From the NCBI GenBank assembly GCA_016283575.1, contig JAEEND010000027.1:2711-66710 (forward strand): a DNA stretch of 64,000 nt, given 5' to 3'. The DNA is from Lachnospiraceae bacterium (lineage in GTDB: Bacteria; Bacillota; Clostridia; Lachnospirales; Lachnospiraceae). Made by a program: the position numbers and the translations under genes. The notes under the pieces are model-generated. The model saw only the letters and a program-made list of their open reading frames with translations, ran no database searches and was not told the origin of the DNA. Shown here piece by piece: positions 274-20,122 of the stretch. Numbering within the stretch: position 1 is the stretch's first letter; each line of letters begins with the position of its first letter.

Positions 274-1797
274 TTATCCAAGTAAGCTGAGTACACCCTG
301 GTTACTCTGGTTGGACTGAGCAAGCATTGCCTGTCCTGCCTGAGCTAAGATATTGTTGTTTGAGTACTTAACCATCTCGGTTGCCATATCTGTATCACGA
401 ATAGCGGATTCAGCAGATGTGGTATTTTCAACTACGTTATCAAGGTTGTTGATGGTGTGCTCAAGTCTGTTCTGAACTGCACCGAATCTTGAACGTTGGG
501 TTGATACGGACTGAATTGCCTCCTTAACTGCATCGATACACTTAAGAGCCTTGTCGGCTGTGGTAACATCGGCTGCATTAAATGCTTTAAGAGATTCTGT
601 TCTCCAATCATATGTGTAACCCTTTAATCCAAGAGCTGCACCGCTTAAGTTTCCGAGTTCAAGTTCGATCTGGTTATTCTTTGTAGCGTCAGCGCCTACA
701 TGAAGGCTGAGCTTTGTATTATCTAATGTAATATCGGCACCTTTTCCGAGGTATCCATTCTTTAAACTCCAGCTGCCTGTATAATCTTCAGATACTGCTG
801 CGTGAGGTCCGGCAACGGTATCACCGTCGAATATGGCAAGTTTACCGTTTCCGCCACCGATATTTACGTGGTGGGAGGTACCCATACAATATGCATTTTT
901 GTTACCTGCGGTATATGTTGTGCTGTTAAGCTTAGCATATGCCGAAAGTACTTTATTGGTTACATCTGTTCCGTTATTACATCCGGAGATGCTTACCCAC
1001 ATTGTGGTTCCACTTGAGTCATTGGCAAATGCCTTATAGCCATCGCTGTTAAGTCCGGGTGTATCATCATCTACAAATTTCAAGCTGTAATAATTATCGC
1101 AAAGAGTACATGTAGCTGATATTCCTGTACCCATAAGCTTTTCAACATCAGCCGCGGAATTGATACCTGTCAAATCCAAGAATCCTGCAGCATAGGAGCC
1201 ACCGGCGTTAACGGCTGTACCGTTCTGATCACCGCCGACAATATTTCCCGTACCTACTACGTTAGATAACTGAGTGCCTGTATATACGCCAAATACATGG
1301 TTTTCAAATAAATCTACATTGGTTCCGATAAGTTCTTCGGACAGTGCTCCGAAGAATCCGTCTTTTTCTTTTACATCATAAGAACCATCCAGCAGATATG
1401 TTTCGTTAAACTTGGTAGTTGCCGCTACTCTGTCTATTTCTGACATGATCTGGTCTACTTCGTTCTGGATGTATCCACGATCATCAGAAGAAAGAGTTCC
1501 GTTAGCCGCTTTAACTGCCAACTCGTTCAATCTCTGAAGCATGTCCTGAACTTCGTTTAATGCACCTTCTGCTGTCTGTACCATTGAGATACCATCCTGT
1601 GCATTTGAAGATGCCTGTGTAAGACCACGAATCTGCTTACGCATCTTTTCACTGATTGACAAACCTGCTGCATCATCAGCTGCTCTGTTAATCTTAAATC
1701 CCGAGGATAATTTCTCGGTGGAATCCGCCTGTGACTTAACTGTTAAATTAAGCATGCGGTTTGAATTCATTGCTGTAAGGTTGTGCTGTACTACCAT
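274..1797 (-). CDS. fliC: Flagellin, long class L (507 aa) with Cys/His-containing central insert
   Basis: Flagellin D0/D1 termini (MVVQHNLTAMNSNRML..AADDAAGLSISEKM; ..TQRSRFGAVQNRLEHTINNLDN..AQAGQAMLAQSNQSNQGVLSLLG). Central residues ~135-365 are shared only with the other two long copies. Confidence 0.95.
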   Translation of the reverse strand: MVVQHNLTAMNSNRMLNLTVKSQADSTEKLSSGFKINRAADDAAGLSISEKMRKQIRGLTQASSNAQDGISMVQTAEGALNEVQDMLQRLNELAVKAANGTLSSDDRGYIQNEVDQIMSEIDRVAATTKFNETYLLDGSYDVKEKDGFFGALSEELIGTNVDLFENHVFGVYTGTQLSNVVGTGNIVGGDQNGTAVNAGGSYAAGFLDLTGINSAADVEKLMGTGISATCTLCDNYYSLKFVDDDTPGLNSDGYKAFANDSSGTTMWVSISGCNNGTDVTNKVLSAYAKLNSTTYTAGNKNAYCMGTSHHVNIGGGNGKLAIFDGDTVAGPHAAVSEDYTGSWSLKNGYLGKGADITLDNTKLSLHVGADATKNNQIELELGNLSGAALGLKGYTYDWRTESLKAFNAADVTTADKALKCIDAVKEAIQSVSTQRSRFGAVQNRLEHTINNLDNVVENTTSAESAIRDTDMATEMVKYSNNNILAQAGQAMLAQSNQSNQGVLSLLG

Positions 1798-1831
1798 ATT
1801 ATTCTCCTTTCTTGTCCCGCACTATCACGGG

Positions 1832-1845
1832 TGGAATCCTTTCCA
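1832..1845 (-). promoter_or_regulatory. Leader hairpin with GGA in the loop (CsrA-site-like)
   Basis: Minus strand tggaAAGGAttcca: 5-bp stem with AGGA loop. A second GGA lies in the SD (AAAGGAG). Confidence 0.45.
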
Positions 1846-1865
1846 TAACGTGCCCCTCACTATAT

Positions 1866-1892
1866 ATATCGTCAATGCTTTATCATTCTAAA
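1866..1892 (-). promoter_or_regulatory. SigD-like promoter (good -10, weak -35)
   Basis: Minus strand TTTA-N15-GACGATAT. The -10 matches 7/8 but the -35 is TTTA instead of TAAA. Confidence 0.4.
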
Positions 1893-2001
1893 GTAATAAG
1901 CCCGTTAATTATTCGTTAATAATTCATGTTTCTTTTGCACAACAAAAAAGCACAGATCCTTCGATCCGTGCTTTTTGTATATTCAAGTCTGTATTATCAC
2001 T

Positions 2002-2119
2002 ATAATAAACCGCTTCGCGTTTTATTATCGGTCGATAGAATAATCCTCAGGCTTATTCTATCTCTACAATAGACCTTCGGTCTATTGTCATCGCTTGAAT
2101 AATCCCTCCGGGATTATTC
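2002..2119. repeat. Four tandem AT-clamped hairpins downstream of flagellin 2119-3705
   Basis: ataataaaccgcTTCgcgttttattat (2002-2028), agaataa..ttattct (2037-2059), CAATAGACC-TTCG-GGTCTATTG (2067-2087), GAATAATCCC-TCC-GGGATTATTC (2097-2119). Confidence 0.8.
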
Positions 2120-3705
2120 TATCTCAGTAAAGAAAGTACACCCTGATTGGACTGGTTAGCCTGTGCAAGCATTGCCTGTCCTGCCTGAGCTAAGATGTTA
2201 TTGTTAGAATATCTAACCATCTCAGTTGCCATATCCGTATCTCTGATTGCAGATTCAGCAGATGTGGTATTTTCAACTACGTTATCAAGGTTCTTAATGG
2301 TGTGCTCAAGTCTGTTCTGAACTGCACCGAATCTTGAACGCTGTGTGGAAACTGCCTGTATCGCATCTTTAACTGCATTGATACAATCAAGGGCTTTTGC
2401 TGCCGTAGTTACATCGGCTGCGTTAAATTCTTTAAGAGATTCTGACTTCCAGTCATATTTAAAGCCCTTAAGTCCTAAAGCAACACCGCTTAAGTTACCG
2501 AGTTCAAGTTCAATCTGGTTATTCTTAGTAGCATCTGCGCCAACATGAAGATTAAGCTTTGTATTTTCCGGAGTTACTTCAGCACCTTTTCCAAGGTAAC
2601 CGTTCTGTAATCCGTAATAGCTCGAATAATCATCCTGTCCGACTTGGTTGGCCCAGGACTTGCTGGTCTTATTATCTGAGTCAAATAATACCAAAGTGCT
2701 TCCGCCACCGCCGATACATACGTGATGCCAGCTGGATCCTGTATCAGAGAGCGTCTGTCCTGCATTTGATGCGCTGCCGACAGATCCCATGTTATAAGCT
2801 GCCTTGGAACCTGCGGTATGGGTTGTTCCATTATAGCGGGCATAGGCGCTTAATACTGTATCTACTACATCCGATCCGTTATTACAGGAGGAAATATCTA
2901 TCCAAAGATTCTGTCCGCCCGCGGAGTTACCAACTACTTTATAGCCGTTAGCATTCAGTCCTAAAGAAGGATCGTCATCAACCAGTTTGATTGAAAAGAA
3001 AGTTTCACAAGCACCACAGGTTGCGGATAATCCGGTTCCTATAAGTCTTTCGACATCGCTCTTTGTGGTAAGTGATGAAAGATCAAAGCTTGTTGCCGCA
3101 AATCCGGCTCTGCTGGATGTTGCCAGATCCGAACCGTTGCTACCATTAACTATGTTATCTCCGACTAATCCTGCCATTTCGGAACCTGATTTCCAGTCAA
3201 ATACGTGATTGGTAAATAATGACTCGTTGGTTCCTATAATATCTTCGGACAAAGCACCGTAGAAACCATCTTTTTCTTCTACGGAATATTTACCGTTAAG
3301 AAGATAGGTTTCATTAAATTTGGTGGTTGCCGCTACTCTGTCAATTTCTGACATTATCTGATCTACTTCGTTCTGAATGTAACCGCGGTCATCTGAAGAA
3401 AGAGTTCCGTTTGCTGCTTTAACAGCCAGCTCGTTCATTCTCTGAAGCATATCCTGCACTTCATTTAAAGCGCCTTCAGCTGTCTGCACCATGGAAATAC
3501 CGTCCTGCGCGTTTGCGGAAGCCTGTGTAAGACCTCTTATCTGCTTACGCATCTTTTCACTTATGGATAATCCTGCTGCGTCGTCAGCTGCTCTGTTTAT
3601 CTTATATCCCGATGATAATTTTTCGGTGGAACCTGCCTGACCCTTAACCGTTATGTTAAGCATACGGTTCGAATTTATGGCTGTGAGATTATGTTGTACT
3701 ACCAT
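2119..3705 (-). CDS. fliC: Flagellin, long class L (528 aa)
   Basis: Flagellin termini plus the same central insert motifs as 274-1797 (SATCGACETFFSIKLVDDD, ISSCNNGSDV, WHHVCIGGG). Confidence 0.95.
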   Translation of the reverse strand: MVVQHNLTAINSNRMLNITVKGQAGSTEKLSSGYKINRAADDAAGLSISEKMRKQIRGLTQASANAQDGISMVQTAEGALNEVQDMLQRMNELAVKAANGTLSSDDRGYIQNEVDQIMSEIDRVAATTKFNETYLLNGKYSVEEKDGFYGALSEDIIGTNESLFTNHVFDWKSGSEMAGLVGDNIVNGSNGSDLATSSRAGFAATSFDLSSLTTKSDVERLIGTGLSATCGACETFFSIKLVDDDPSLGLNANGYKVVGNSAGGQNLWIDISSCNNGSDVVDTVLSAYARYNGTTHTAGSKAAYNMGSVGSASNAGQTLSDTGSSWHHVCIGGGGSTLVLFDSDNKTSKSWANQVGQDDYSSYYGLQNGYLGKGAEVTPENTKLNLHVGADATKNNQIELELGNLSGVALGLKGFKYDWKSESLKEFNAADVTTAAKALDCINAVKDAIQAVSTQRSRFGAVQNRLEHTIKNLDNVVENTTSAESAIRDTDMATEMVRYSNNNILAQAGQAMLAQANQSNQGVLSLLR

Positions 3706-3884: not shown

Positions 3885-5042
3885 TTATCTGAGTAATGCA
3901 AGAACACCCTGGTTAGACTGGTTAGCCTGTGCAAGCATTGCCTGTCCTGCCTGACTGAGGATATTGTTGTTAGAATATCTAACCATCTCAGTTGCCATAT
4001 CTGTATCACGGATAGCAGATTCAGCGGATGTTGTATTTTCAACTACGTTGTCAAGGTTGTTGATCGTATGATCAAGTCTGTTCTGTACAGCACCGAGTGC
4101 AGATCTCTGTGTAGAAATCTTCTGGATTGCTGTCTTGATGGTTTCGATTGCTGTAAGAGCATTCTTATCATCAGTACCATCAACTTTAAGACCGTCAACA
4201 CCGATTCCCTTAGCACTCATAGCGTTTAAAGAAACACTAATCTGGTTGTTGGAAGTAGCATCAGCACCTACATGAAGCTTAAGTTCAAGAGCACCTACGC
4301 CTGTACCTGAAGCTTCCATCACAGCCAATTTAGCAGTTGTAGAAGCATCATTGTCGCTTGCGCCAAGTACTGTTGTTCCGGCTGTTACTGCTAATGCCGT
4401 TGCACTTAAAGTATAACCATCTGTTGCGTTTCCTGTTTTGGTATAGAGTTTTCCTACTGCTTCTGCTGTAGCCTTACCGTTCTGATCAATGTAATTGGAA
4501 AGTGCGTTTTCAGAAATCCAGTTACCATTTGCATCATAGTAAACTTTGGTAGGATCCTTAATACCGCCATCTTTAGCAAAAGCGGCTGCAGTATATGAAA
4601 ACTGCTTAACCTTAGTTGCAGAAGAATCACCCTTAAGTAAGTAAGTTTCGTTGAACTTTGTGGTTTCAGCGACACGGTCGATTTCTGTTACTAACTGATC
4701 GATTTCGTTCTGGATATAAGAACGGTCATCTGTTGAGTTTGTACCGTTAGCGGATTTAACTGCAAGTTCGTTCATTCTCTGAAGCATGTCCTGAACTTCG
4801 TTTAATGCGCCTTCAGCTGTCTGTACTGCTGAAATACCATCCTGTGCGTTAGCGGAAGCCTGTGTAAGACCTCTGATCTGTTTACGCATCTTTTCGGAAA
4901 TTGATAATCCTGCTGCATCATCAGCTGCTCTGTTAATCTTAAAACCGGATGAAAGTTTCTCAGTTGACTTTGCCTGTGTCTTTGTATTGACATTAAGCAT
5001 ACGGTTTGAGTTCATCGCTGTTAAGTTGTGTTGTACTACCAT
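3885..5042 (-). CDS. fliC: Flagellin, short class S (385 aa, Cys-free)
   Basis: Flagellin termini (..RSALGAVQNRLDHTINNLDN..QSNQGVLALLR). Variable centre contains YDANGNWISENAL. Confidence 0.95.
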   Translation of the reverse strand: MVVQHNLTAMNSNRMLNVNTKTQAKSTEKLSSGFKINRAADDAAGLSISEKMRKQIRGLTQASANAQDGISAVQTAEGALNEVQDMLQRMNELAVKSANGTNSTDDRSYIQNEIDQLVTEIDRVAETTKFNETYLLKGDSSATKVKQFSYTAAAFAKDGGIKDPTKVYYDANGNWISENALSNYIDQNGKATAEAVGKLYTKTGNATDGYTLSATALAVTAGTTVLGASDNDASTTAKLAVMEASGTGVGALELKLHVGADATSNNQISVSLNAMSAKGIGVDGLKVDGTDDKNALTAIETIKTAIQKISTQRSALGAVQNRLDHTINNLDNVVENTTSAESAIRDTDMATEMVRYSNNNILSQAGQAMLAQANQSNQGVLALLR

Positions 5043-5075
5043 AATTGTTTCCTCCTTGAATGGTTGTAATCTTTA

Positions 5076-5093
5076 CGCGATATCCTTATCGCG
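5076..5093 (-). promoter_or_regulatory. Leader hairpin with GGA in the loop (CsrA-site-like)
   Basis: Minus strand cgcgatAAGGATatcgcg. The SD is CAAGGAGGAA, about 25 nt downstream. Confidence 0.5.
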
Positions 5094-5101
5094 ATTTTTG
5101 T

Positions 5102-5132
5102 GGAACCGCCACCGGGTTTCGGTGGCAGTTCC
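5102..5132 (-). other. GC-rich stem-loop between flagellin genes
   Basis: ggaaccgccaccgg-gttt-c(c)ggtggc(a)gttcc. On the coding strand it is followed by ACAAAAAT, not a U-tract. Confidence 0.5.
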
Positions 5133-5158
5133 TATTGTTTTTGGTTAAGTGACTAATC

Positions 5159-6316
5159 TTATCTCAGAAGAGAAAGAACGCCCTGGTTAGACTGGTTAGC
5201 CTGTGCAAGCATTGCCTGTCCTGCCTGACTGAGGATGTTATTGTTAGAATATCTAACCATCTCAGTTGCCATATCTGTATCACGGATAGCAGATTCAGCG
5301 GATGTAGTATTTTCAACTACGTTGTCAAGGTTGTTGATTGTGTGATCAAGTCTGTTCTGTACAGCACCGAGTGCAGATCTCTGAGTAGAAATCTTCTGGA
5401 TTGCTGCTTTAATAGTTTCGATTGCTGATAATGCATTAGTATCATCAGCGCCATCAACCTTAAGACCGTCAACACCAATACCTTCAGCTGACATTGAAGA
5501 AATGCTAACTGAAATCTGGTTATTTGATGTAGCATCAGCACCAACGTGAAGCTTTAATGTAAGAGCTCCAAGTCCGGAAGCTGTACCTTCTTTCTCGATT
5601 GCTGCCTTAACGATTGTTTCAGCGCCTGCTGCAGGTGAAGCCTTAGCAATATCTGTACCAACCGCAATTTCAGTTCTGGTTCCGGCTTTGAATGCTGCCT
5701 CATCAGCGTAACCGTACATAACCTTTGTGGTCTTTCCTGTTGCTGTGTCAACGTAATCGTTTAAAGCATTTTCAGAAATCCAGTTACCGTTTGCATCATA
5801 AAGAACCTTTGCCTTACCTGCATCTGTAAGTTCTACTGCACCGTTTGCTGTAAGGTTTCCGCTCTTATATGTAACCTGGTTAACCTTTGTAGCACTCTTG
5901 TCACCCTTAAGTAAGTAGGTTTCGTTGAACTTTGTGGTTTCAGCTACACGATCTATTTCTGTTACTAACTGATCGATTTCGTTCTGGATGTAAGTACGGT
6001 CGTCAGTAGAGTTGGTGCCGTTAGCGGACTTAACTGCAAGTTCGTTCATTCTCTGAAGCATGTCCTGAACTTCGTTTAATGCGCCTTCAGCTGTCTGCAC
6101 TGCTGAGATACCATCCTGAGCATTTGCGGAAGCCTGTGTAAGACCTCTGATCTGCTTACGCATCTTTTCACTGATGGATAAGCCTGCTGCATCATCCGCT
6201 GCACGGTTAATCTTATAACCGGATGAAAGTTTCTCAGTTGACTTTGCCTGTGTCTTTGTGTTGACATTCAGCATACGATTTGAGTTCATCGCTGTTAAGT
6301 TGTGTTGTACTACCAT
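5159..6316 (-). CDS. fliC: Flagellin, short class S (385 aa, Cys-free)
   Basis: Flagellin termini. The centre differs from 3885-5042 but keeps LYDANGNWISENAL. Confidence 0.95.
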   Translation of the reverse strand: MVVQHNLTAMNSNRMLNVNTKTQAKSTEKLSSGYKINRAADDAAGLSISEKMRKQIRGLTQASANAQDGISAVQTAEGALNEVQDMLQRMNELAVKSANGTNSTDDRTYIQNEIDQLVTEIDRVAETTKFNETYLLKGDKSATKVNQVTYKSGNLTANGAVELTDAGKAKVLYDANGNWISENALNDYVDTATGKTTKVMYGYADEAAFKAGTRTEIAVGTDIAKASPAAGAETIVKAAIEKEGTASGLGALTLKLHVGADATSNNQISVSISSMSAEGIGVDGLKVDGADDTNALSAIETIKAAIQKISTQRSALGAVQNRLDHTINNLDNVVENTTSAESAIRDTDMATEMVRYSNNNILSQAGQAMLAQANQSNQGVLSLLR

Positions 6317-6350
6317 AATTATTTCCTCCTTGAATGGTTGTGTAAAAAAT

Positions 6351-6368
6351 CACGATATCCATATCGTG
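6351..6368 (-). promoter_or_regulatory. Leader hairpin with GGA in the loop (CsrA-site-like)
   Basis: Minus strand cacgataTGGAtatcgtg: 7-bp stem with UGGA loop. The SD is CAAGGAGGAA. Confidence 0.5.
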
Positions 6369-6419
6369 GCTAAGGGGCTAAAACCCTAAATAACTAATAG
6401 ATTAAAGCTTGGTTACCGG

Positions 6420-6438
6420 GGCGCTGCTAAGCAGCGCC
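6420..6438 (-). other. GC-rich stem-loop between flagellin genes
   Basis: GGCGCTGC-taa-GCAGCGCC, a perfect 8-bp stem with no U-tract on the coding strand. Confidence 0.5.
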
Positions 6439-6456
6439 GCCGATAGTTGGTCATGC

Positions 6457-7740
6457 TTATCCAAGTAAGCTGAGTACACCCTGATTTGACTGGTTAGCCT
6501 GTGCAAGCATTGCCTGTCCTGCCTGAGCTAAGATGTTGTTGTTAGAATATCTAACCATCTCAGTTGCCATATCAGTATCACGGATACTGGATTCAGCAGA
6601 TGTAGTATTTTCAACTACGTTATCAAGGTTGTTGATCGTGTGATCAAGTCTGTTCTGTACAGCACCGAGTGCGGATCTCTGTGTGGAAATCTTCTGGATT
6701 GCTGCTTTGATGGTTTCGATTGCATCAAGTGCGTTGCTGTCATCAGCGCCGTCAACCTTAAGGCCGTTAACGCCGATACCTGTTGCGCTCATAGCTGCGA
6801 GATCAACAGAAATCTGGTTGTTAGATGTAGCATCAGCACCTACGTGAAGCTTAAGAGTAAGATCGTTTGGAATTGATCTTGTTCCTACGAAATTAGCCTT
6901 AACCATTGTAGTAGGATTGAATGCGATCTTTCCTTCGGTATCAAGGAATACTGTACCTGCCTTGCCATCCTGGAAAGTTCCGTCGTTCTTAAAAATAGAA
7001 TCAAGCGCGTTGCTGGAGTATCTGTTGCCGTTTGCATCATAGAGGTTTGCTCTTGTTGCTTCGGTAAATTCAACAGTCTTACTTCCTGCAGTAATCTTTG
7101 CAGTATCACCTGCCTGGAAAGTACCGGCATAGGTTCCAGCTCCGATTACTGTAGCAGCATCTCCACCTGCGTGGTTTGCAGTTGCATTGAACCAGTTCGT
7201 ACCATCAAATACAAATGTTGCGTCAGCTGCAGCTGCATTTGTAAGAGTTCCGGAAAGAGCTGTTGTACTCTTTGCATATGTTGTAGCTGTACTATAAGCT
7301 GCAACTGTCTGAGTTCCGCTCTTATCTCCTTTAAGAAGATAAGTTTCGTTGAACTTTGTGGTTTCTGCTACTCTGTCGATTTCGGACACGAGCTGATCGA
7401 TTTCGTTCTGGATGTAAGTACGGTCATCAGTAGAGTTTGTACCGTTAGCTGCTTTAACTGCAAGTTCGTTCATTCTCTGAAGCATGTCCTGAACTTCGTT
7501 TAATGCGCCTTCAGCTGTCTGTACTGCTGAAATACCATCCTGTGCGTTAGCGGAAGCCTGTGTAAGACCTCTGATCTGCTTACGCATCTTTTCGGAAATT
7601 GATAATCCTGCTGCATCATCTGCTGCACGGTTGATCTTAAATCCGGATGAAAGTTTCTCAGTTGACTTTGCCTGTGTCTTTGTATTGACATTAAGCATAC
7701 GGTTTGAGTTCATCGCCGTTAAGTTGTGTTGTACTACCAT
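6457..7740 (-). CDS. fliC: Flagellin, short class S (427 aa, Cys-free)
   Basis: Flagellin termini. The centre contains TFVFDGTNWF and LYDANGNRYSSNAL. Confidence 0.95.
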   Translation of the reverse strand: MVVQHNLTAMNSNRMLNVNTKTQAKSTEKLSSGFKINRAADDAAGLSISEKMRKQIRGLTQASANAQDGISAVQTAEGALNEVQDMLQRMNELAVKAANGTNSTDDRTYIQNEIDQLVSEIDRVAETTKFNETYLLKGDKSGTQTVAAYSTATTYAKSTTALSGTLTNAAAADATFVFDGTNWFNATANHAGGDAATVIGAGTYAGTFQAGDTAKITAGSKTVEFTEATRANLYDANGNRYSSNALDSIFKNDGTFQDGKAGTVFLDTEGKIAFNPTTMVKANFVGTRSIPNDLTLKLHVGADATSNNQISVDLAAMSATGIGVNGLKVDGADDSNALDAIETIKAAIQKISTQRSALGAVQNRLDHTINNLDNVVENTTSAESSIRDTDMATEMVRYSNNNILAQAGQAMLAQANQSNQGVLSLLG

Positions 7741-7774
7741 AATTGTTTCCTCCTTGAAATTGTCATATGGTTTT

Positions 7775-7792
7775 CACGATATCCTTATCGCG
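7775..7792 (-). promoter_or_regulatory. Leader hairpin with GGA in the loop (CsrA-site-like)
   Basis: Minus strand cgcgatAAGGATatcgtg. The SD is CAAGGAGGAA. Confidence 0.5.
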
Positions 7793-7813
7793 TTGTTACT
7801 GTGATGGTAATAC

Positions 7814-7837
7814 CCGCTACCGGTTTCCCGGTAGCGG
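7814..7837 (-). other. GC-rich stem-loop between flagellin genes
   Basis: CCGCTACCGG-tttc-CCGGTAGCGG, a perfect 10-bp stem with no U-tract on the coding strand. Confidence 0.5.
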
Positions 7838-7898
7838 AGCATTCAAATCATTTGATTACCACGGAGATAATTCTCCAAGTTCCTTACCTACCTGTTGA

Positions 7899-8972
7899 TT
7901 AGCCAAGTAAGCTGAGAACACCCTGGTTAGACTGGTTAGCCTGTGCAAGCATTGCCTGTCCTGCCTGACTGAGGATGTTATTGTTAGAATATCTAACCAT
8001 CTCAGTTGCCATATCTGTATCACGGATAGCAGATTCAGCGGATGTTGTGTTTTCAACTACGTTGTCAAGGTTGTTGATTGTGTGATCAAGTCTGTTCTGT
8101 ACAGCACCGAGTGCGGATCTCTGAGTAGAAATCTTCTGGATTGCTGCCTTGATGGTTTCGATTGCATTGAGTGCATTTGTGTCATCAGCACCATCTACCT
8201 TAAGGCCGTTAACTCCAATTCCCTTAGCGCTCATTGCGTTAAGATCAACTGAAATCTGGTTGTTGGATGTTGCGTCTGCACCAACATGAAGCTTAAGAGT
8301 AAGAGGTCCGCTGTAAGCGTTAGCGTTATCTGCTGTAATCTTTGCATAAGCTGCATTAGCTGCGTATTCAGTGCCTGCTGCATTATACAGTTTCTTTCCG
8401 TCTGCATATGTTGTACCATTCTTAAAATAGTCAGCAAGTGCATTCTCAGAAATCTTGTTGCCGTTTGCATCATATAATGCATTATCCTTGGTGGCTTCGT
8501 AATCAGCAGGATCAACTGCAGCTGCATACTTGAAAGGTGTTACAGTAGTGCTCTTGTCACCCTTAAGTAAGTAGGTTTCGTTGAACTTTGTGGTTTCTGC
8601 TACTCTGTCAATTTCAGATACAAGCTGATCGATTTCGTTCTGGATGTAAGTACGGTCATCTGTTGAGTTTGTACCGTTAGCGGACTTAACTGCAAGTTCG
8701 TTCATTCTCTGAAGCATGTCCTGAACTTCGTTTAATGCGCCTTCAGCTGTCTGTACTGCTGAGATACCATCCTGTGCATTTGCAGAAGCCTGTGTAAGAC
8801 CTCTGATCTGCTTACGCATCTTTTCGGAAATTGATAATCCTGCTGCATCATCTGCTGCACGGTTGATCTTAAATCCTGAAGAAAGCTTCTCAGTTGACTT
8901 TGCCTGTGTCTTTGTGTTGACATTGAGCATACGATTTGAGTTCATCGCTGTTAAATTGTGTTGTACTACCAT
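7899..8972 (-). CDS. fliC: Flagellin, short class S (357 aa, Cys-free)
   Basis: Flagellin termini. It has the shortest variable centre, with LYDANGNKISENAL. Confidence 0.95.
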   Translation of the reverse strand: MVVQHNLTAMNSNRMLNVNTKTQAKSTEKLSSGFKINRAADDAAGLSISEKMRKQIRGLTQASANAQDGISAVQTAEGALNEVQDMLQRMNELAVKSANGTNSTDDRTYIQNEIDQLVSEIDRVAETTKFNETYLLKGDKSTTVTPFKYAAAVDPADYEATKDNALYDANGNKISENALADYFKNGTTYADGKKLYNAAGTEYAANAAYAKITADNANAYSGPLTLKLHVGADATSNNQISVDLNAMSAKGIGVNGLKVDGADDTNALNAIETIKAAIQKISTQRSALGAVQNRLDHTINNLDNVVENTTSAESAIRDTDMATEMVRYSNNNILSQAGQAMLAQANQSNQGVLSLLG

Positions 8973-9007
8973 ATTTTTTTCCTCCTTGATGATAGATAGT
9001 TAGTTAC

Positions 9008-9023
9008 CAGGCTTCCTTGCCTG
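9008..9023 (-). promoter_or_regulatory. Leader hairpin with GGA in the loop (CsrA-site-like)
   Basis: Minus strand caggcAAGGAAgcctg. The SD is CAAGGAGGAA. Confidence 0.45.
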
Positions 9024-9030
9024 TCGTTGG

Positions 9031-9113
9031 ATAATTAACCTGGCGGTTAATTATCATGTATAATCAACCTTTCGGTGGATTATCGTGTATGATCAACCCT
9101 TTCGGGAGATTAT
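9031..9113. repeat. Three tandem AT-clamped hairpins
   Basis: ATAATTAACC-tggc-GGTTAATTAT (9031-9054), ataatcaacc-tttc-ggtggattat (9060-9083), atgatcaaccc-tttc-gggagattat (9089-9113). Confidence 0.8.
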
Positions 9114-9296
9114 CCTAAGTCATATTTCAGAAACAAAAATAAACGAAAATCTTAATCTTCGCCTCGGATAGTAGTTTTTACTTAAATTGGGGGTGGGAAA
9201 TAAAGTCACGAATAAGAAATGCGATGCATTCCTCGTGTAAAAATAATCTAGAAACATCCTCCATGATGTAAAAACAACCTCCGTGTTGTTATATCG

Positions 9297-9325
9297 ATTA
9301 TACTATTTAATATTCTTTTTGTACA
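9297..9325 (-). promoter_or_regulatory. Possible sigma-A-type promoter inside the 523-bp flagellin spacer
   Basis: Minus strand TGTACA-N17-TATAAT (-35 at 9320-9325, -10 at 9297-9302). Confidence 0.35.
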
Positions 9326-9378
9326 GTACTCCTAATTGTGTGCACCGTTGATAAATGTACCAAATGTTGGGATTTTCC

Positions 9379-9400
9379 CGGTTCAGGTTTCCCTGAACCG
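9379..9400 (-). other. GC-rich stem-loop after flagellin 9496-10779
   Basis: CGGTTCAGG-tttc-CCTGAACCG, a perfect 9-bp stem with no U-tract on the coding strand. Confidence 0.5.
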
Positions 9401-9495
9401 AGTTTATTATCCCACATGATGATTAATATCTTATTAAAATTAAAAGAAATTAATCTTGAATAACCCTTTAAGAATTATTCATATACAATCAGCTA

Positions 9496-10779
9496 TTAAC
9501 CAAGTAAACTAAGTACACCCTGATTGGTCTGGTTAGCCTGTGCGAGCATTGACTGTCCTGCCTGAGCAAGGATGTTATTGTTCGAATATCTAACCATTTC
9601 AGTTGCCATATCTGTATCACGGATACCGGATTCAGCAGATGTGGTATTTTCAACTACGTTATCAAGGTTGTTGATTGTGTGGTCCAGTCTGTTCTGAACT
9701 GCACCGAGTGCAGATCTCTGAGTGGAAATCTTCTGGATTGCTGACTTGATGGTCTCAATCGCATAACGAGCATTTGTATCATCAGCGCCGTCTACTTTAA
9801 GATCTTTAACGCCGATACTCTTAGCGCTCATAGATTCCAAAGTAACAGAAATCTGGTTGTTTGATGTTGCGTCAGCACCTACATGAAGTTTAAGGGTTAA
9901 TGCATCGGTTAAATCCTTGGTTGCTGTAGGTAAATAGTTAGCGAGGTTAGCAGCACGTAACTGTGTGCCCTTTTCGTCGATATAAACCTTAGCATTAGTC
10001 TTAAGAGAAACTACTCCTGCATCACTTACATCGAAGTATTTATCAAGACCGTTATCAGGGATTCTGTTTCCGTTTGAGTCGTATAAAGCTGCGCCATATT
10101 CGAATGTAGCTTCATCAAAATGAGCCTTCTTGGATGCTGCTTCGTATACGAGTCTGTCGCCGGCCTTAGCATTAGCGATATCTGCTACACCATAAGCGGT
10201 GAAGTTTGCTACAGCTGCAGAATCTGTGCTTCCTTCTTCAAACCAAGCTGTTCCGTCAAATACGAAAGTCTTGTCTGCGGTTGCTGTTCCTGCTGTAAAT
10301 GTAGCTGTTGCTGCAGCATCGGTAACTGCCTTAGCTTTTAAGGAATACTTTGCGTTAGCATCTGTTCCCTTAAGTAAGTAAGTTTCGTTGAACTTTGTTG
10401 TCTCAGCTACACGATCAATTTCAGAAACAAGCTGATCGATTTCGTTCTGGATATAGGTACGGTCATCAGTAGAGTTGGTGCCGTTAGCTGCTTTAACTGC
10501 AAGTTCGTTCATTCTCTGAAGCATGTCCTGAACTTCGTTTAATGCACCTTCAGCTGTCTGTACTGCTGAAATACCATCCTGTGCGTTAGCGGAAGCCTGT
10601 GTAAGACCTCTGATCTGCTTACGCATCTTTTCACTGATTGATAAGCCTGCTGCATCATCTGCCGCACGGTTAATCTTGTAACCGGATGAAAGCTTTTCTG
10701 TTGACTTTGTCTGAGACTTAACCGTAAGGTTTAACATACGGTTAGAATTCATTGCTGTTAAGTTGTGTTGTACTACCAT
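9496..10779 (-). CDS. fliC: Flagellin, short class S (427 aa from the MVVQ start, Cys-free)
   Basis: The ORF track starts at 10794 (MEEKIM...). That upstream ATGGAGGA is actually the SD for the conserved MVVQHNL start at 10779. Confidence 0.93.
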   Translation of the reverse strand: MVVQHNLTAMNSNRMLNLTVKSQTKSTEKLSSGYKINRAADDAAGLSISEKMRKQIRGLTQASANAQDGISAVQTAEGALNEVQDMLQRMNELAVKAANGTNSTDDRTYIQNEIDQLVSEIDRVAETTKFNETYLLKGTDANAKYSLKAKAVTDAAATATFTAGTATADKTFVFDGTAWFEEGSTDSAAVANFTAYGVADIANAKAGDRLVYEAASKKAHFDEATFEYGAALYDSNGNRIPDNGLDKYFDVSDAGVVSLKTNAKVYIDEKGTQLRAANLANYLPTATKDLTDALTLKLHVGADATSNNQISVTLESMSAKSIGVKDLKVDGADDTNARYAIETIKSAIQKISTQRSALGAVQNRLDHTINNLDNVVENTTSAESGIRDTDMATEMVRYSNNNILAQAGQSMLAQANQTNQGVLSLLG

Positions 10780-10808
10780 TATTTTTTCCTCCATGAAAAA
10801 TTGTTCTA

Positions 10809-10993: not shown

Positions 10994-12565
10994 TTATCCG
11001 AGTAAACTGAGTACTCCCTGGTTAGCCTGGTTGGACTGAGCGAGCATTGCCTGTCCTGCCTGAGCTAAGATGTTGTTATTGGAATAAGATACCATTTCCT
11101 TAGCCATATCTGTATCACGGATTGCAGATTCAGCTGCTGTTGTGTTTTCAACTACGTTATCAAGGTTGTTGATGGTATGTTCAAGTCTGTTCTGAACTGC
11201 ACCGAATCTTGAACGCTGTGTTGATACGGACTGAATAGCTGACTTAACTGCATCTATGCAGAGAAGAGCTTTTTCAGCTGTAGTAACGTCTGCAAGATTT
11301 CTTTCTGCTACGTTTTCTGTTCTCCAGTCATACTTGTAACTCTTTAATCCTAATGCAAATGTAGAAAGGTTACCAAGTTCAAGTTCGATCTGGTTGTTGC
11401 TTGTTGCATCTGCGCCAACGTGAAGCTTCATCTTTTCGTTAACTTCTTTAGCTTCAACGCCCTTGCCTACGTAACCGTTAGCAAAACCGCCGGAACCCAT
11501 ATATCCTTCTGCCTGAACACCGGCACCGCTACCACCATCTGTATCAAAAAGAACAAGTTTACCTGTCTGATCGTTACCGCCGATTGCTACGTGATGCCAG
11601 CTAGTGTTTGTATCGTTAAGGATCGCTCCGTCTGTTCTGCCGGTTCCACCCATGTTGTAAGAAGCTGCTCCACCTGAATAAGTGGTTCCGTTATATAATG
11701 CATATGCCTTCATAACCGCATTAACAACGTCTTTACCATTATTACATCCGGATATATCAATCCAAAGAGTATCACCACCCTGAGCATTACCGTGAGCTTT
11801 GTAGCCGTTAGCGTTTAATCCAAGATCTGCGCCGTCATCTACAAACTTAATGCTGTAGAATGTGGAGCAAGCCATACATGTTGCGGAAATACCGCAGCCA
11901 TATAATTCTTCGACGCCTGCCTTAGTTGTTACATTTGATAAATCAAGGAATCCTGCTGCATAAGTCCCTGAACTGAGAGTAATGTCTGAACCGTTATCAC
12001 CATTAACAGTAGTCGCACCTGCTACGGCTGTAACTTCCGCCTGACTATGTGTACCTAGTGAATGGTTTGTAAGAAGGTCTGCGTTGGTTCCGACAATAGT
12101 TTCGTCCAACTGTCCCTGGAAGCCGCCATCTCCTTCTTCAACTTCATAAGTACCGTTTAACAAATATGTTTCGTTGAACTTTGTAGTATGAGCTACACGA
12201 TCGATTTCTGTCATGAGCTGATCTACTTCGTTCTGGATGTATCCGCGGTCATCAGAACTTAATGTGCCGTTAGCTGCCTTAACTGCAAGTTCGTTCATTC
12301 TCTGAAGCATGTCCTGAACTTCGTTTAATGCACCTTCAGCTGTCTGTACCATTGAGATACCGTCCTGTGCGTTGGCAGATGCCTGTGTAAGACCACGAAT
12401 CTGCTTACGCATCTTTTCACTGATTGATAAGCCTGCTGCATCGTCGGCTGCACGGTTAATGCGATAACCGGACGAAAGCTTTTCTGTTGAACCCGCCTGT
12501 GACTTAACTGTTAAGTTAAGCATTCGATTGGAGTTCATTGCTGTTAGGTTGTGTTGTACTACCAT
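10994..12565 (-). CDS. fliC: Flagellin, long class L (523 aa)
   Basis: Flagellin termini plus class-L insert motifs (SATCMACSTFYSIKFVDD, ISGCNNGKDV, WHHVAIGG, LLCIDAVK). Confidence 0.95.
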   Translation of the reverse strand: MVVQHNLTAMNSNRMLNLTVKSQAGSTEKLSSGYRINRAADDAAGLSISEKMRKQIRGLTQASANAQDGISMVQTAEGALNEVQDMLQRMNELAVKAANGTLSSDDRGYIQNEVDQLMTEIDRVAHTTKFNETYLLNGTYEVEEGDGGFQGQLDETIVGTNADLLTNHSLGTHSQAEVTAVAGATTVNGDNGSDITLSSGTYAAGFLDLSNVTTKAGVEELYGCGISATCMACSTFYSIKFVDDGADLGLNANGYKAHGNAQGGDTLWIDISGCNNGKDVVNAVMKAYALYNGTTYSGGAASYNMGGTGRTDGAILNDTNTSWHHVAIGGNDQTGKLVLFDTDGGSGAGVQAEGYMGSGGFANGYVGKGVEAKEVNEKMKLHVGADATSNNQIELELGNLSTFALGLKSYKYDWRTENVAERNLADVTTAEKALLCIDAVKSAIQSVSTQRSRFGAVQNRLEHTINNLDNVVENTTAAESAIRDTDMAKEMVSYSNNNILAQAGQAMLAQSNQANQGVLSLLG

Positions 12566-12738: not shown

Positions 12739-13188
12739 TTATTTAAGGTCATTGTACTTCATTGCCCTTGTGTAACTGCTTACGGCATTGGCAGTTGAGC
12801 GCTGAGCCTTAATCTTCTTCTTCTCGTCTTTAAATATATGTTCCAAAGCCTGTTTGTTTCGCTGTTCATCCGCCATGATAAGCGCGCTTTTATCAGTAAT
12901 TTCCCTGATAAGTTTTTGCATGGCTGCAATCTCAGCGGCGAATCGGGACTTGTTTTTATCAAGTTCCTCCTTCACCTTTTCATACAGACTTTCGAAGCCT
13001 TCATCAAGCTTGTTAAGCTTAAAGATGAGTACGCCTTTGTCTTCCACAGTCTTGTCGAATCTGCCAAAAGAAAAAGGTTCCTCTTTCAGTACTGCTTCCT
13101 GTTCTTTATTCTTTTCAATAATGTCGTCCAAAACCTTTACTTTCTTTTCAAGGCTTTCAACTAAAGCTACTACGTATGTCTTTTCCAT
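12739..13188 (-). CDS. Helical 149-aa protein in the fliT position (putative flagellar chaperone)
   Basis: Its start overlaps the fliS stop (TAATG). The protein is charged and coiled-coil-like, and the gene order flaG-fliD-fliS-X matches B. subtilis fliT. No diagnostic motif was seen. Confidence 0.5.
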   Translation of the reverse strand: MEKTYVVALVESLEKKVKVLDDIIEKNKEQEAVLKEEPFSFGRFDKTVEDKGVLIFKLNKLDEGFESLYEKVKEELDKNKSRFAAEIAAMQKLIREITDKSALIMADEQRNKQALEHIFKDEKKKIKAQRSTANAVSSYTRAMKYNDLK

Positions 13189-13565
13189 TATGACGCCTTT
13201 GCCTGCTTCATGACTTCTTTCCAGGTATCTCTTACGGAGCGAAGATGCATAAGCACTTCTTCCATGGCCTCTTTATCCTTACGGGTATTGGCCACAAGAA
13301 GTCTCTGTGAAAGATATACATAAATCCTTTCAAAGTCTTTGGCTACTTCGAACCGCATGTCCAGAGTCTCACGAAGATAGTCTATGATCTTCTCCACTTT
13401 AACTATGTTGACGTGAGCGCCTTCGATATCACCCTGATCGATCTTCATGATCGCGATGTTACCGAATTTGATCGCACCTTCATAGAGGAGCAGAGTAAGT
13501 TCCGCAGGGGACGCGGTCAACACTTTTGAATTACTGTATTGTGCGTATGCGTTAGGTATTGCCAT
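13188..13565 (-). CDS. fliS: Flagellin-specific export chaperone FliS
   Basis: 125 aa with YSNSKVLTASPAELTLLLYEGAIKF, typical of FliS, located directly after fliD. Confidence 0.9.
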   Translation of the reverse strand: MAIPNAYAQYSNSKVLTASPAELTLLLYEGAIKFGNIAIMKIDQGDIEGAHVNIVKVEKIIDYLRETLDMRFEVAKDFERIYVYLSQRLLVANTRKDKEAMEEVLMHLRSVRDTWKEVMKQAKAS

Positions 13566-13579
13566 AATCTAATCTCCTT

Positions 13580-15421
13580 TTAATTACCGCCGCCAAGCAT
13601 GGAGGTAATTGAACTGGTTGATGACTGGAGCTTTGAAAGTGCTACTTCCATAGCTGCGAATTTTGCGTAGTATTTGTCTTCGTAATCTGCAAGAGCTGCT
13701 TCAGCTTCTTTTACCTTATCCTTGTAGGATGTGGTAGTGGTCTTGTAAAGCTTGTCGTCATAGAAAGAACCTGCACTGGAATTTTCCGTGCCCTTGCTTA
13801 GATCCTGCATCTTTGCGTAAAGATCACGGGATAACTGTACGAAGAAGTTTACAACTTTGTCAGGGTCATTGGCGATGGCTGTTTTTAACTTATCAGCTTC
13901 GCCGGATACTGTAGCATCATCCTTATCACCGCTTATGTGATAAGCGTTCTTTTCATGGTCCGGTGCGATCATGTAGTTAAGTGTATTGATACCGAAGTCG
14001 GATAAATACATCTTGGTATCGCCTACGGTTGTTCCCTGAAGCATTATATTCTTCATTGCCTGAGAAAGAGTTCCGAGGGTGGAGTCACGACGAAGGAGGG
14101 AATCCTTAATGGTCTGCTCCCACTTTTCAATTTCTTTTTCAGACATATCTTCTTTTTCTTCATCGGTAAGGGGCTGATAAGTACGGGCAATGGGTGCATC
14201 GTAAAGCTTATCGAATTCATTTACCAGGGCATTGTATTCCTTGAAGAAATTCTTGATCATGTCATAAACGCCATCGGTATCTTCCTGAGTGGTGACTGTA
14301 ACGTCTTCAGCTTCGGAAAGACAGGTAAATGTAAGCCCGTTAACCTCCACGTTATTGGAGGATGAGGTATATTCAACACCGTTAAGAGTGATCAAAGCAT
14401 CCTGGCCTGCGATCTTAACCGCATCGCCAGTGTAAAAATCATCATAGGTGTTGCCTGTTGTGATTTCTGTTGCAAAAGAAACCTTATCATATAAACGGTT
14501 GAGAGCTGTTTCATAATCTTCAGCTTCCAAGCCGCCGTTCTTTATTTCCGCTTTAATAAGTTCGTATAATTCGCCTTCGGTTCCGATGGCATCCATTGTA
14601 GCAACTGCGTCAATGTTATCTTCACCGTCACGTACGATTACGCTATCTAAGCTTCCCTTGTAACCTGCCAGCTTCTGATACTCTGCGAGAGTTTTTGCAT
14701 TGGAATTAACTGCAGAATCGGTGCTTGTGCCAAGGGACTCGTTGATACCGAGGAGCGATATTGCAGCGAAGCCTACCGAATTATCGGCTGTAATGGAGAA
14801 ATCGTTGTCAGATCCGCTCTTTGCACTGGATATGAAGATTCTTCCGTTGGTTTCGTCGTAGTTTGCATCAACTCCGGCATCCTGAATCTTAGCGATAACA
14901 TCGGAGATCTTGGTATTTTCCGTGATCTCGATGCGGGTAACTTTATCTCCTGATGAAACTGTAAAAGAGCCTGTTCCCGTGATTTCAGGAAGACCTTCCT
15001 TGACTGTTCCGTCAGAGTTCTTTAATACAAGATCTTTTACAAGAGTTTCACCGGTAATGGCTGCGCCTTCTTTTTCGGAAAGCTTTGCGCCTGTCATGTA
15101 ACCGCTTTTAGCAAGTCTCTTAACGGAAAGAGTCTGCACACCGTTCATGGCCTTTTCACCTGTAATAACGGATACGGCAGAGGTATTGGAAACACTTGTG
15201 GTTTTCTTCTTATAGGAAGAAGAATATCTTAACTGTGAAAGGGAAGTATTGAAGAAGTTTTTGATCTTGGTATTTAAACCCGACCATGCTTCCTGCTTCC
15301 ATGTGTGTTTTGTCTGTTCTTTTTTTACTTTATCAACCTTGGTGGAGCGAGCCTTCACCAATTCTTCGATTATGGAATCTGTATCCAGTCCTGAATACAT
15401 TCCGCTTACTCTTAAGGGCAT
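13580..15421 (-). CDS. fliD: Flagellar filament cap protein FliD
   Basis: 613 aa with the N-terminus MPLRVSGMYSGLDTDSIIEELVKA and C-terminus YYAKFAAMEVALSKLQSS, characteristic of FliD. Confidence 0.92.
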   Translation of the reverse strand: MPLRVSGMYSGLDTDSIIEELVKARSTKVDKVKKEQTKHTWKQEAWSGLNTKIKNFFNTSLSQLRYSSSYKKKTTSVSNTSAVSVITGEKAMNGVQTLSVKRLAKSGYMTGAKLSEKEGAAITGETLVKDLVLKNSDGTVKEGLPEITGTGSFTVSSGDKVTRIEITENTKISDVIAKIQDAGVDANYDETNGRIFISSAKSGSDNDFSITADNSVGFAAISLLGINESLGTSTDSAVNSNAKTLAEYQKLAGYKGSLDSVIVRDGEDNIDAVATMDAIGTEGELYELIKAEIKNGGLEAEDYETALNRLYDKVSFATEITTGNTYDDFYTGDAVKIAGQDALITLNGVEYTSSSNNVEVNGLTFTCLSEAEDVTVTTQEDTDGVYDMIKNFFKEYNALVNEFDKLYDAPIARTYQPLTDEEKEDMSEKEIEKWEQTIKDSLLRRDSTLGTLSQAMKNIMLQGTTVGDTKMYLSDFGINTLNYMIAPDHEKNAYHISGDKDDATVSGEADKLKTAIANDPDKVVNFFVQLSRDLYAKMQDLSKGTENSSAGSFYDDKLYKTTTTSYKDKVKEAEAALADYEDKYYAKFAAMEVALSKLQSSTSSITSMLGGGN

Positions 15422-15485
15422 AAAAAACCTCCTTTTAACGACAACTAAAGGGTAGACTATCCCCTACCCACAGATTCTTGGTTAC

Positions 15486-15896
15486 TTATCTCTTTTCGTC
15501 TACCAACAATCCTGCAAGTTCCCACGCCTTGGCGATCATATCGAGGGTCTTTTCGGGAGGTAACTCTTTGATTACTTCCTTGGTATCCTTGTCGATGATC
15601 TTAATGGTTACACGGTTAGTTTCCTCGTGGAATCCGTATACCGCTTCAGAGTTGTACATCTTCTTGTTGATGTCTTCGATAGCTTTATGAATCCTTTCGG
15701 CATTCTTTTCGAAGTTTTTCTCGAAATAGGGTTCATTCTTCTTCTCGATGTTTTCAACAACTCTGGTCTGGTTGTCAACCTTGGGGGCTTTTTCCGGAGT
15801 CTGTACTTCCGTGTACTCAATATTGGGCTTTGAAACCGGCTGTTTGATTGTTCCTGCTACATTAGACATTACGCTTCCAACTGATTCAAGTGCCAT
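15486..15896 (-). CDS. flaG: FlaG family protein
   Basis: C-terminus HEETNRVTIKIIDKDTKEVIKELPPEKTLDMIAKA is FlaG-like. The start was moved to the ATG at 15896, preceded by AAAGGAGAG, whereas the ORF track starts at 15929. Confidence 0.85.
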   Translation of the reverse strand: MALESVGSVMSNVAGTIKQPVSKPNIEYTEVQTPEKAPKVDNQTRVVENIEKKNEPYFEKNFEKNAERIHKAIEDINKKMYNSEAVYGFHEETNRVTIKIIDKDTKEVIKELPPEKTLDMIAKAWELAGLLVDEKR

Positions 15897-15950
15897 TTTA
15901 ACTCTCCTTTCGCGGCGTCCGTGCCGCACGGTTTACCTTTTCTAAGTACT

Positions 15951-15977
15951 ATATCGACATATTTTTACAAAACTTTA
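15951..15977 (-). promoter_or_regulatory. SigD/sigma-28 promoter of flaG-fliD-fliS
   Basis: Minus strand TAAA-gttttgtaaaaatat-GTCGATAT. Confidence 0.75.
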
Positions 15978-16011
15978 GACCTTTTTAAAAAGAAATCCAT
16001 AGATGATTAAA

Positions 16012-16035
16012 ACATCTGCTTAACCAAGCAGATGT
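16012..16035 (-). terminator. Stem-loop overlapping the csrA stop, possible terminator
   Basis: ACATCTGCTT-aacc-AAGCAGATGT, a perfect 10-bp stem followed on the coding strand by UUUAAU (a short U-run). Confidence 0.5.
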
Positions 16036-16238
16036 CTTAATCCTTCCATTGCGTCCGTATTCATTGCTTCTCTGTTAGATGCTTGTATCTGTACGTATAC
16101 TTCTTTTCTGTATACCGGAACTTCTCTGGGAGCCTGGATGCCTAACTTAACCTGCTCGCCTTTAATCTCTAAAACAGTTATTTCAATGTTGTTGTTGATG
16201 ATGAGTGCTTCGTTTTTCTTTCTGGATAAGGCTAACAT
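16020..16238 (-). CDS. csrA: Carbon storage regulator CsrA (flagellar type)
   Basis: 72 aa, MLALSRKKNEALIINNNIEITVLEIKGEQVKLGIQAPREVPVYRKEVY. The start overlaps the fliW stop (TAATG). Confidence 0.95.
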   Translation of the reverse strand: MLALSRKKNEALIINNNIEITVLEIKGEQVKLGIQAPREVPVYRKEVYVQIQASNREAMNTDAMEGLRHLLG

Positions 16239-16699
16239 TATTCACTCACCTTCTTTCTTTCGTTTAAGATATCGTAAATGGGGAATTTAACTTTGTATTC
16301 GTCACTGTCTACGATGATCTGAACTGCTTTTCTTGAGTCAACGTTCACTACGATGGGCGCCTTTAAATTAACGCTCATTTCTTTTAAGTCCTTGGGAACC
16401 GTAACGGTTACAAGAACAAGTAAATCATCATTGTCTATGTCGCCGATGGGCTTTAAGATCTCATCTTCAACCATGGGGTTGTAGGTGTCGCATACAGCCA
16501 GGGGGTCCATTACAGGCATTGCAAAAGCAGGCTCCTGCATGGACTGAAGCCATCTGATACCGGCGTTGTTTCCTCTCTCAGCATCATGCACGAGAGCAAA
16601 ATCCGTAAGTTCGGGGAAGCCGATAATTCCTTTTTCAAAGCGTATGATCTTGGAATCATCAATTTCCACTTCACCAAAAACGCGAGTTGTGATTTTCAT
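16238..16699 (-). CDS. fliW: Flagellar assembly factor FliW
   Basis: 153 aa, MKITTRVFGEVEIDDSKIIRFEKGIIGFPELTDFAL. The synteny flgL-fliW-csrA supports the call. Confidence 0.93.
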   Translation of the reverse strand: MKITTRVFGEVEIDDSKIIRFEKGIIGFPELTDFALVHDAERGNNAGIRWLQSMQEPAFAMPVMDPLAVCDTYNPMVEDEILKPIGDIDNDDLLVLVTVTVPKDLKEMSVNLKAPIVVNVDSRKAVQIIVDSDEYKVKFPIYDILNERKKVSE

Positions 16700-16724
16700 G
16701 TTTTTTCTCCTTTATAGGTAAAGA

Positions 16725-18164: not shown

Positions 18165-18193
18165 TGTTTACCTTTCCTCACTGAACATGAAGG

Positions 18194-20095: not shown

Positions 20096-20122
20096 AAGAT
20101 AACCTCCTCTCCGGCATCTTTA

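Follow-up and report, generated by a model that had tools for sequence, protein, structure and literature searches.

Host immunity, phages and surfaces encounter the bacterial filament at the outer domains of flagellin, whose folds have for the most part not been studied. An AlphaFold survey of these domains distinguished 682 structural clusters; Cys, zinc and the Lachnospiraceae are not mentioned in it (PMC11532411). Flagellinolysin provides a precedent for an enzymatic flagellin (PMC5595980), and Firmicutes tend to keep Cys out of exported proteins rather than to form disulfides (PMC2823432). We analyzed a stretch of 64,000 nucleotides from a Lachnospiraceae bacterium (assembly GCA_016283575.1, contig JAEEND010000027.1, positions 2,711 to 66,710; the whole stretch is called the window here), in which three long flagellins each contain a domain that we term the CxxC-His module. 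The module is an undescribed domain family with no solved structural relative, within flagellins that have a specialised outer domain. Its invariant Cys2-His signature, in a class of proteins that as a rule avoid Cys, marks a candidate metal site.

The CxxC-His module and its family

The first 12.6 kb of the window hold, on the minus strand, an array of eight flagellin genes. The three long ones encode genuine filament subunits: Pfam detects both terminal flagellin domains in all three (PF00669, E 1e-40 to 1e-42; PF00700, E 1e-26 to 1e-27) and nothing recognisable beyond them, Foldseek matches solved filaments at E 1e-17, and the late-gene context and upstream signals, as read from the DNA, are those of flagellin genes. 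The long flagellins, their variable regions and the modules within these are as follows (aa, amino acids; AF2, AlphaFold2; pLDDT, predicted local distance difference test; pTM, predicted template modelling score).

274..1797, minus strand: long flagellin 1, 507 aa, with Flagellin_N and Flagellin_C; full-length AF2 model at pLDDT 80
2119..3705, minus strand: long flagellin 2, 528 aa, with Flagellin_N and Flagellin_C; identical to database protein P0001
10994..12565, minus strand: long flagellin 3, at the opposite end of the array, 523 aa, with Flagellin_N and Flagellin_C
712-1383, minus strand: variable region of flagellin 1, aa 139-362
2557-3291, minus strand: variable region of flagellin 2, aa 139-383
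11432-12151, minus strand: variable region of flagellin 3, aa 139-378
814..1197, minus strand: CxxC-His module of flagellin 1, aa 201-328, from family alignments A3/A4; AF2 pLDDT 93.6, pTM 0.89
2668..3105, minus strand: CxxC-His module of flagellin 2, aa 201-346, from the family alignment
11531..11965, minus strand: CxxC-His module of flagellin 3, aa 201-345, from the family alignment

Identity among the long flagellins is 94% in the N-terminal D0/D1 part, 82-89% in the C-terminal part and only 51-55% in the variable region, so the Cys and His columns that they share have been kept through substantial divergence; the codons at these columns differ synonymously (TGT/TGC, CAT/CAC). An earlier, sequence-only reading of this DNA had recognised the insert by four motifs, each of which is found in all three long flagellins.

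aa 225-244 of the three long flagellins: G[IL]SATCxxCxx[FY][FY]S[IL]K[FL]VDD
aa 267/268 of the three long flagellins: W[VI]xIS[GS]CNNGxDV
aa 309/327/324 of long flagellins 1/2/3: HHVxIGG
aa 416/437/432 of long flagellins 1/2/3: KALxCI[DN]AVK

That reading had also set limits for the insert, to which the recomputed limits lie close, and had described the five short paralogues as Cys-free, which they are (0 Cys in 5/5). Its further statement, that the short paralogues lack the insert, holds in that the module is unrelated to them; it needs amending in that there was no insertion into a shared region, as the short flagellins carry variable regions of their own. These are ~110-180 aa long and align with the module at an hhalign probability of ~0.1%, a value that speaks against a degenerate, Cys-less module in the short paralogues, an idea that was rejected. 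Each long flagellin contains in addition a fifth, private Cys (C304, C330 and C224).

An exhaustive HMMER search for the family, in which a profile built from the inserts of the three long flagellins was run on 1.84 billion representative proteins, recovered 54 proteins at E<=1e-3 (~50 protein clusters). Only two clusters match closely: one is the window protein, the other a fragment that comes from a second species. The remaining clusters share the core of the insert only. This core is a member of the module family, with ~105-145 aa shared with the relatives and 128-146 aa in the window flagellins. Flagellin termini are present in 49/54 module proteins, which range in length from ~430 to 1068 aa, the rest being fragments. 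The family thus consists almost entirely of Clostridia-type flagellins, with named sources among uncultured Roseburia, Lachnospiraceae metagenome-assembled genomes and Clostridium sp. Between the D1 segments of the flagellin it has the signature ..DFS..G.GF..TCxxC...YSI.F...[DIS]...H[YFW]....L..[YF]D.., and the proteins of the window can be aligned, all three, along the whole module and retain its D, C, C, H and D, as family members do. They are divergent members, with D-L-[TS] in place of DFS, HH in place of H[YF] and FD.D in place of YDNR. Insertions and deletions in the family alignment cluster in three loops, and the invariant core keeps its register.

One family member, P0052, is a true FlgL (TIGR02550, 160 bits; cut-off 127). 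Its flanks to either side of the module are 40-42% identical to the FlgL of the window, and the insertion point corresponds to about residue 226 of the latter. Because the module lies inside this FlgL between conserved flanks, we regard it as an independent folding unit. By this distribution it is a domain that is self-contained and mobile among flagellar axial proteins, and the arrangement shows that domains have been shuffled between flagellin and FlgL, the protein of the hook-filament junction.

The insert had been called unrecognisable, and it found no match in Pfam, NCBIfam, PDB sequence or PDB fold searches. NCBIfam and PDB sequences yielded no match to the insert alone, a profile search of PDB sequences with the module family was empty, and Pfam and NCBIfam scans of 44 family members returned scattered chance matches only. 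A word-indexed protein search returned nothing for the insert alone and one member for the family profile, its index being insensitive for the module family. In the literature we found no paper describing the CxxC-His module. The module is a compact domain outside Pfam, NCBIfam and the PDB, spread in the flagellins and FlgL of gut and rumen Clostridia, and at minimum it deserves a new domain-family entry.

Conserved residues, predicted fold and a candidate metal site

The positions on which the interpretation turns are listed here in the numbering of flagellin 1, with their equivalents in flagellins 2 and 3.

1099..1110, minus strand: CxxC, C230 and C233; C in 56/56 in both columns; equivalents 3007-3018, 11867-11878
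868..873, minus strand: His309-His310; first H in 53/54; equivalents 2722-2727, 11591-11596
1174..1176, minus strand: Asp208 (module D8, end of the 'DFS/DLT' strand), candidate fourth ligand; D in 55/55; equivalents 3082-3084, 11942-11944
826..828, minus strand: Asp324 (module D124, end of the last strand), near-invariant; D in 41 and E in 4 of 49; equivalents 2680-2682, 11543-11545
979..981, minus strand: Cys273 (SGCNNG), clade-specific; equivalents 2884-2886, 11744-11746
538..540, minus strand: Cys420 in the C-terminal D1 helix (KALKCIDAVK), which starts at aa 414; small-residue position; equivalents 2383-2385, 11258-11260

At the ~30% pairwise identity of alignment A4, the invariant residues are G25, C30, C33 and H109 (module numbering). 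The sequence-only reading had treated four Cys and the His-His pair as one conserved set; checked in orthologues, half of these columns pass strongly and half fail. The CxxC (56/56) and the first His (53/54) are kept family-wide, and the other three positions are replaced in relatives: the Cys273 column holds I15, C12, V8, L7, A4, F3 and M3 (C in 12/53), the His310 column Y26/F13/W5/H4 (Y, F or W in 44/54 family members) and the Cys420 column A14, S14, C5, T4 and G2 (A, S, T or G in 34/40, and Ala in 5/5 short paralogues). Since relatives fill these columns with hydrophobic, aromatic or small residues, Cys273, His310 and Cys420 are probably clade-specific packing residues. The full pattern of four Cys plus HH is confined to the window clade, that is, to 99%-identical strains and the long flagellins of one other species, and the nearest outgroup protein, P0040, keeps the CxxC and one His only. 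Exactly two Cys, the CxxC pair, are present in four complete module flagellins. For mutagenesis, the residues that matter are C230, C233, H309, D208 and D324, and not C273, H310 and C420.

The HMMER match set is mildly biased towards Cys-retaining sequences. Metagenomes were therefore scanned with a back-translated, Cys/His-free motif, KLYIYDNR, and the matches scored by the family hidden Markov model with its Cys/His columns masked. Eight of the 82 matches were true and represent three distinct proteins, all three of which, in this small sample, keep D..CxxC..H..D.

The array of that other species (locus L003, GCA_965313875.1) is orthologous to the one in the window and has at least 12 flagellin genes. 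One of its long flagellins (7296-8930) is split by an in-frame TGA where GGA, for the Gly of 'AAGFLDL', is expected, owing either to a nonsense mutation or to an error in sequencing; in the intact 525-aa copy (2921-4498), the start as called looks frameshifted.

With the 44-sequence family alignment as input, AF2 models the module at pLDDT 93.6 and pTM 0.89 as an α/β domain of eight strands and two helices. DSSP assignment of this model places the CxxC in the six-residue loop of the β2-β3 hairpin (module residues 30-35, with strand 25-29 before it and strand 36-42 after it). Asp208 is the last residue of strand β1 in a β-α-β unit, the second strand of which ends at Cys230, and H109 (His309) lies ahead of the final hairpin with D124 (Asp324) at its end. 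Judged from this connectivity, the five conserved residues, all at strand ends, could converge.

When the module was compared with the PDB by Foldseek, no significant match was obtained (best E 0.6, TM (template modelling score) ~0.2), and against BFVD nothing was found at E<=1e-3. The full-length model of flagellin 1 matches solved flagellins via D0/D1 only (query-normalised score, TMq, <= 0.46), its best core match being the Roseburia hominis filament 9hpz (target-normalised score, TMt, 0.80; 32% identity). An ordinary D2/D3 flagellin fold, with the Cys and His far apart in it and no metal or disulfide detected, had been named in advance as one outcome that would refute the sequence-only reading; Foldseek matches no solved outer domain, and therefore the module is not an ordinary D2/D3 or immunoglobulin (Ig)-like domain. 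In the model it is apparently a novel fold, with no detectable relative among solved structures. The weak BFVD neighbours of the module (E 0.013-0.5, TMq 0.44-0.52) are large uncharacterised Caudovirales proteins, one of them labelled baseplate-J-like, a likeness that could reflect a shared surface-display fold or chance.

Conservation of the CxxC and of one His extends well outside the set of window paralogues, a pattern that favours a functional site, with a metal site as the most economical candidate. Invariant Cys pairs with an invariant His are typical of metal sites and not of single-nucleophile enzymes. Tentatively, and with slightly less than even confidence, we read the module as an autonomously folding outer-domain scaffold held by a putative Cys2-His(-Asp) metal site, probably of zinc. 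In such a scheme the surface region of the long flagellins would be built round the α/β module, and the subunit, once exported through the flagellar channel, would fold on reaching the tip of the filament. A divalent metal, most likely Zn2+, would be bound by the CxxC 'knuckle' of the β-hairpin tip, the His and one or both Asp, and would make the scaffold rigid without any disulfide in a habitat that is anaerobic, reducing and rich in proteases. The three length-variable loops would present a strain-specific surface, and Cys273, His310 and Cys420 of the window clade would be packing substitutions and not ligands. As Firmicutes generally leave Cys out of the proteins they export, the retained CxxC argues for a need; a metal site is favoured because the named hosts (Roseburia, Lachnospiraceae, Clostridium sp.) are strict anaerobes.

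Several points weigh against the metal site. Our confidence stays limited because the clustering of the five residues is a prediction from the strand connectivity of the model, because CxHGC (a Cx3C spacing) replaces the CxxC in a few family members, and because the module contains no second CxxC or HxxH, that is, no second zinc knuckle, and so departs from the canonical zinc ribbon. The invariant residues include no more than three classical ligands, and Asp is less common as the fourth ligand in structural zinc sites. Foldseek found no structural neighbour with a metal site in the PDB or BFVD, and the metal would have to be acquired extracellularly, at the filament tip. That AF2 folds the module confidently without metal is uninformative, but reveals no obvious dependence on one.

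The same residues allow other explanations. Both Cys are invariant and CxxC-spaced in a hairpin loop, some members have exactly these two, and the protein is extracellular, all of which would suit an intramodule disulfide, structural or acting as a redox switch, with the His and Asp conserved for other reasons. We consider this unlikely, given that the named hosts are strict anaerobes from a phylum that generally excludes Cys (PMC2823432), that the CxxC does not start a helix, as it would in redox motifs of the thioredoxin type, and that the invariant His and Asp are left unexplained; a metal is favoured over a disulfide because the disulfide gives the invariant Asp no role. A catalytic or ligand-binding site, which would make these proteins new enzymatic or adhesive flagellins with thousands of sites per filament, has in its favour that Cys-His-Asp is a common catalytic set, that flagellinolysin sets a precedent (PMC5595980) and that a flagellinolysin-type gene adjoins a module-bearing flagellin at another locus, L002; enzyme-like outer-domain clusters are also known (PMC11532411). 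It is nonetheless improbable in our judgement: the module resembles no hydrolase or transferase by sequence or fold, two CxxC-spaced invariant Cys fit chelation better, and the Arg of 'YDNR', present in 35/49 members, is Asp in the window clade, so that such a site is not strictly kept.

The metal site and chemical activity could also be combined, with thousands of Cys2-His(-Asp) sites catalysing a reaction, scavenging or sensing metal, or mediating redox-dependent or metal-bridged adhesion or filament bundling. The chance of such a functional metal centre appears slim; were it true, flagellinolysin would be joined by another class of chemically active flagella, the second, on a fold without a solved relative. 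About as doubtful is an ordinary variable outer domain with no special chemistry, in which Cys, His and Asp are core or turn residues. The extreme diversity of outer domains, with their 682 structural clusters (PMC11532411), and the few Cys in other axial proteins of the window would agree with it, but five invariant polar or thiol residues at ~30% identity, within a region that can otherwise vary freely, are hard to explain by packing alone. Least probable of all is the version put forward by the sequence-only reading, in which the four shared Cys, the one in the D1 helix included, and the His-His pair jointly form one or two metal or disulfide sites. All six residues are kept in the three paralogues and in two long flagellins of the second species, but 3/6 columns are hydrophobic, aromatic or small in relatives, P0040 retains the CxxC and one His only, and C420 sits in the long D1 helix, in another domain than the module.

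The flagellin array and its surroundings

The remaining features of the array and the adjoining flagellar genes are the following.

3885..10794, minus strand: five short flagellin paralogues, 357-432 aa, Cys-free, with unrelated variable regions
1798-1960, 3706-3868, 5043-5158, 6317-6456, 7741-7898, 8973-9135, 10780-10942 and 12566-12728, minus strand: flagellin upstream regions with hairpin
556..618, minus strand: long-flagellin-specific segment before the C-terminal D1 helix, aa 394-414 of flagellin 1, YTYDWRTESLKAFNAADVTTA, with ~13 extra residues
2401-2463 and 11276-11338, minus strand: equivalents of this segment in flagellins 2 and 3
12739..22444, minus strand: late flagellar genes adjoining the array (FlgN-like, FliS, FliD, FliW, FlgL, two FlgK, FlgN), identified by Pfam

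Each of the eight flagellin genes is preceded by a strong Shine-Dalgarno sequence and, upstream of that, by a short hairpin with GGA in its loop. The loop reads A(A)GGA, for example CGCGATAAGGATATCGCG, and lies ~25-40 nt ahead of the AAGGAGG Shine-Dalgarno sequence. Because this arrangement is common to all eight, the long flagellin genes look, by their upstream sequences, regulated like the short ones. The layout resembles the two CsrA sites of Bacillus subtilis hag, and sigma-28-like CGATA(T/A) elements lie ahead of several flagellin genes. The fifth short flagellin open reading frame (ORF; 9496-10794) contains an in-frame ATG (MEEKIMVVQH...) five codons ahead of the conserved MVVQHNL start at 10779, which is more likely the true one. 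The long-specific segment at aa 394-414, not present in the short paralogues, is modelled as two extra strands (392-397 and 402-407) in the full-length AF2 model of flagellin 1.

Among the late genes, the window FlgL (16725-18164) is confirmed by TIGR02550, and 16238-16699 holds the gene for FliW. Next to the multi-flagellin array there are also two paralogues of FlgK (hook-associated protein 1) in tandem, at 18194-20095 and 20123-21904. Further along, 39893-41092 and 43341-56042 encode a PseC-type aminotransferase (source name UDP-4-amino-4,6-dideoxy-N-acetyl-beta-L-altrosamine transaminase), a nucleotidyltransferase, two Acyl_transf_3 proteins, a DUF6056 protein, a PMT_2 glycosyltransferase and several ORFs without a match; together these could be a surface-glycan or flagellin-glycosylation island. 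Large ORFs (423-630 aa) without a Pfam match are found at 22838-24730, 51412-54950 and 56065-62476, one of them flanked by the flagellar operon on one side and a hybrid histidine kinase on the other, and an Abi_2 (abortive-infection-like) protein is encoded at the far end of the window (62554-63498).

Comparison with known systems

The D0/D1 of the long flagellins superposes well on that of Roseburia hominis filament 9hpz and of other Firmicute flagellins that consist of D0/D1 only, and therefore the long flagellins should polymerise in the same way; in all of these D0/D1-only flagellins the outer domain is wholly absent. Like the canonical outer domains, that is, D2/D3 of Salmonella FliC and the Ig-like domains of Pseudomonas and Campylobacter, the module lies between the D1 segments, is surface-exposed and has hypervariable loops. 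The canonical domains are Cys-free, in contrast to the module, for which Foldseek finds no solved flagellin domain (best E 0.6).

With the zinc knuckle and zinc ribbon the module shares a CxxC at the tip of a β-hairpin and a further invariant His. It differs from them in being an eight-strand, two-helix α/β domain and not a mini-domain, in having one knuckle, and in its putative fourth ligand, an Asp. A thioredoxin-like oxidoreductase was rejected, as the CxxC lies in a hairpin loop and there is no thioredoxin-type Pfam match and no fold match. So was c-type haem attachment: none of the three proteins has CxxCH, the residue after the second Cys being D, E or S. A thioester or ester cross-link domain, considered for the H-Y-T-Q-Y-A found in many members, was ruled out by the missing Gln in the window clade and the absence of a fold match.

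The long flagellins are not flagellinolysins, as the sequence-only reading had already concluded: HExxH is absent from all three, and the NF033876 match, at 43 bits against a cut-off of 205, is confined to aa 110-166, in the D1 flank. At locus L002 (7166-9358), a flagellinolysin-type flagellin of 730 aa with HExxH (HELMH) is encoded directly downstream of a module flagellin of the CxHGC variant. The module (~130 aa) is much smaller than the flagellinolysin domain and has no peptidase-like fold match, and its candidate ligands are Cys2-His where those of flagellinolysin are His2-Glu. What the two have in common is a folded domain, in the module only possibly metal-bearing, in the variable region of a Clostridia flagellin, shown on every subunit and coexisting with ordinary flagellin paralogues (NF033876; PMC5595980). 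If the module binds metal, it would be a second kind of metallo-flagellin, and would illustrate how Gram-positives that live anaerobically give stability to the filament domains they export when disulfides are not used.

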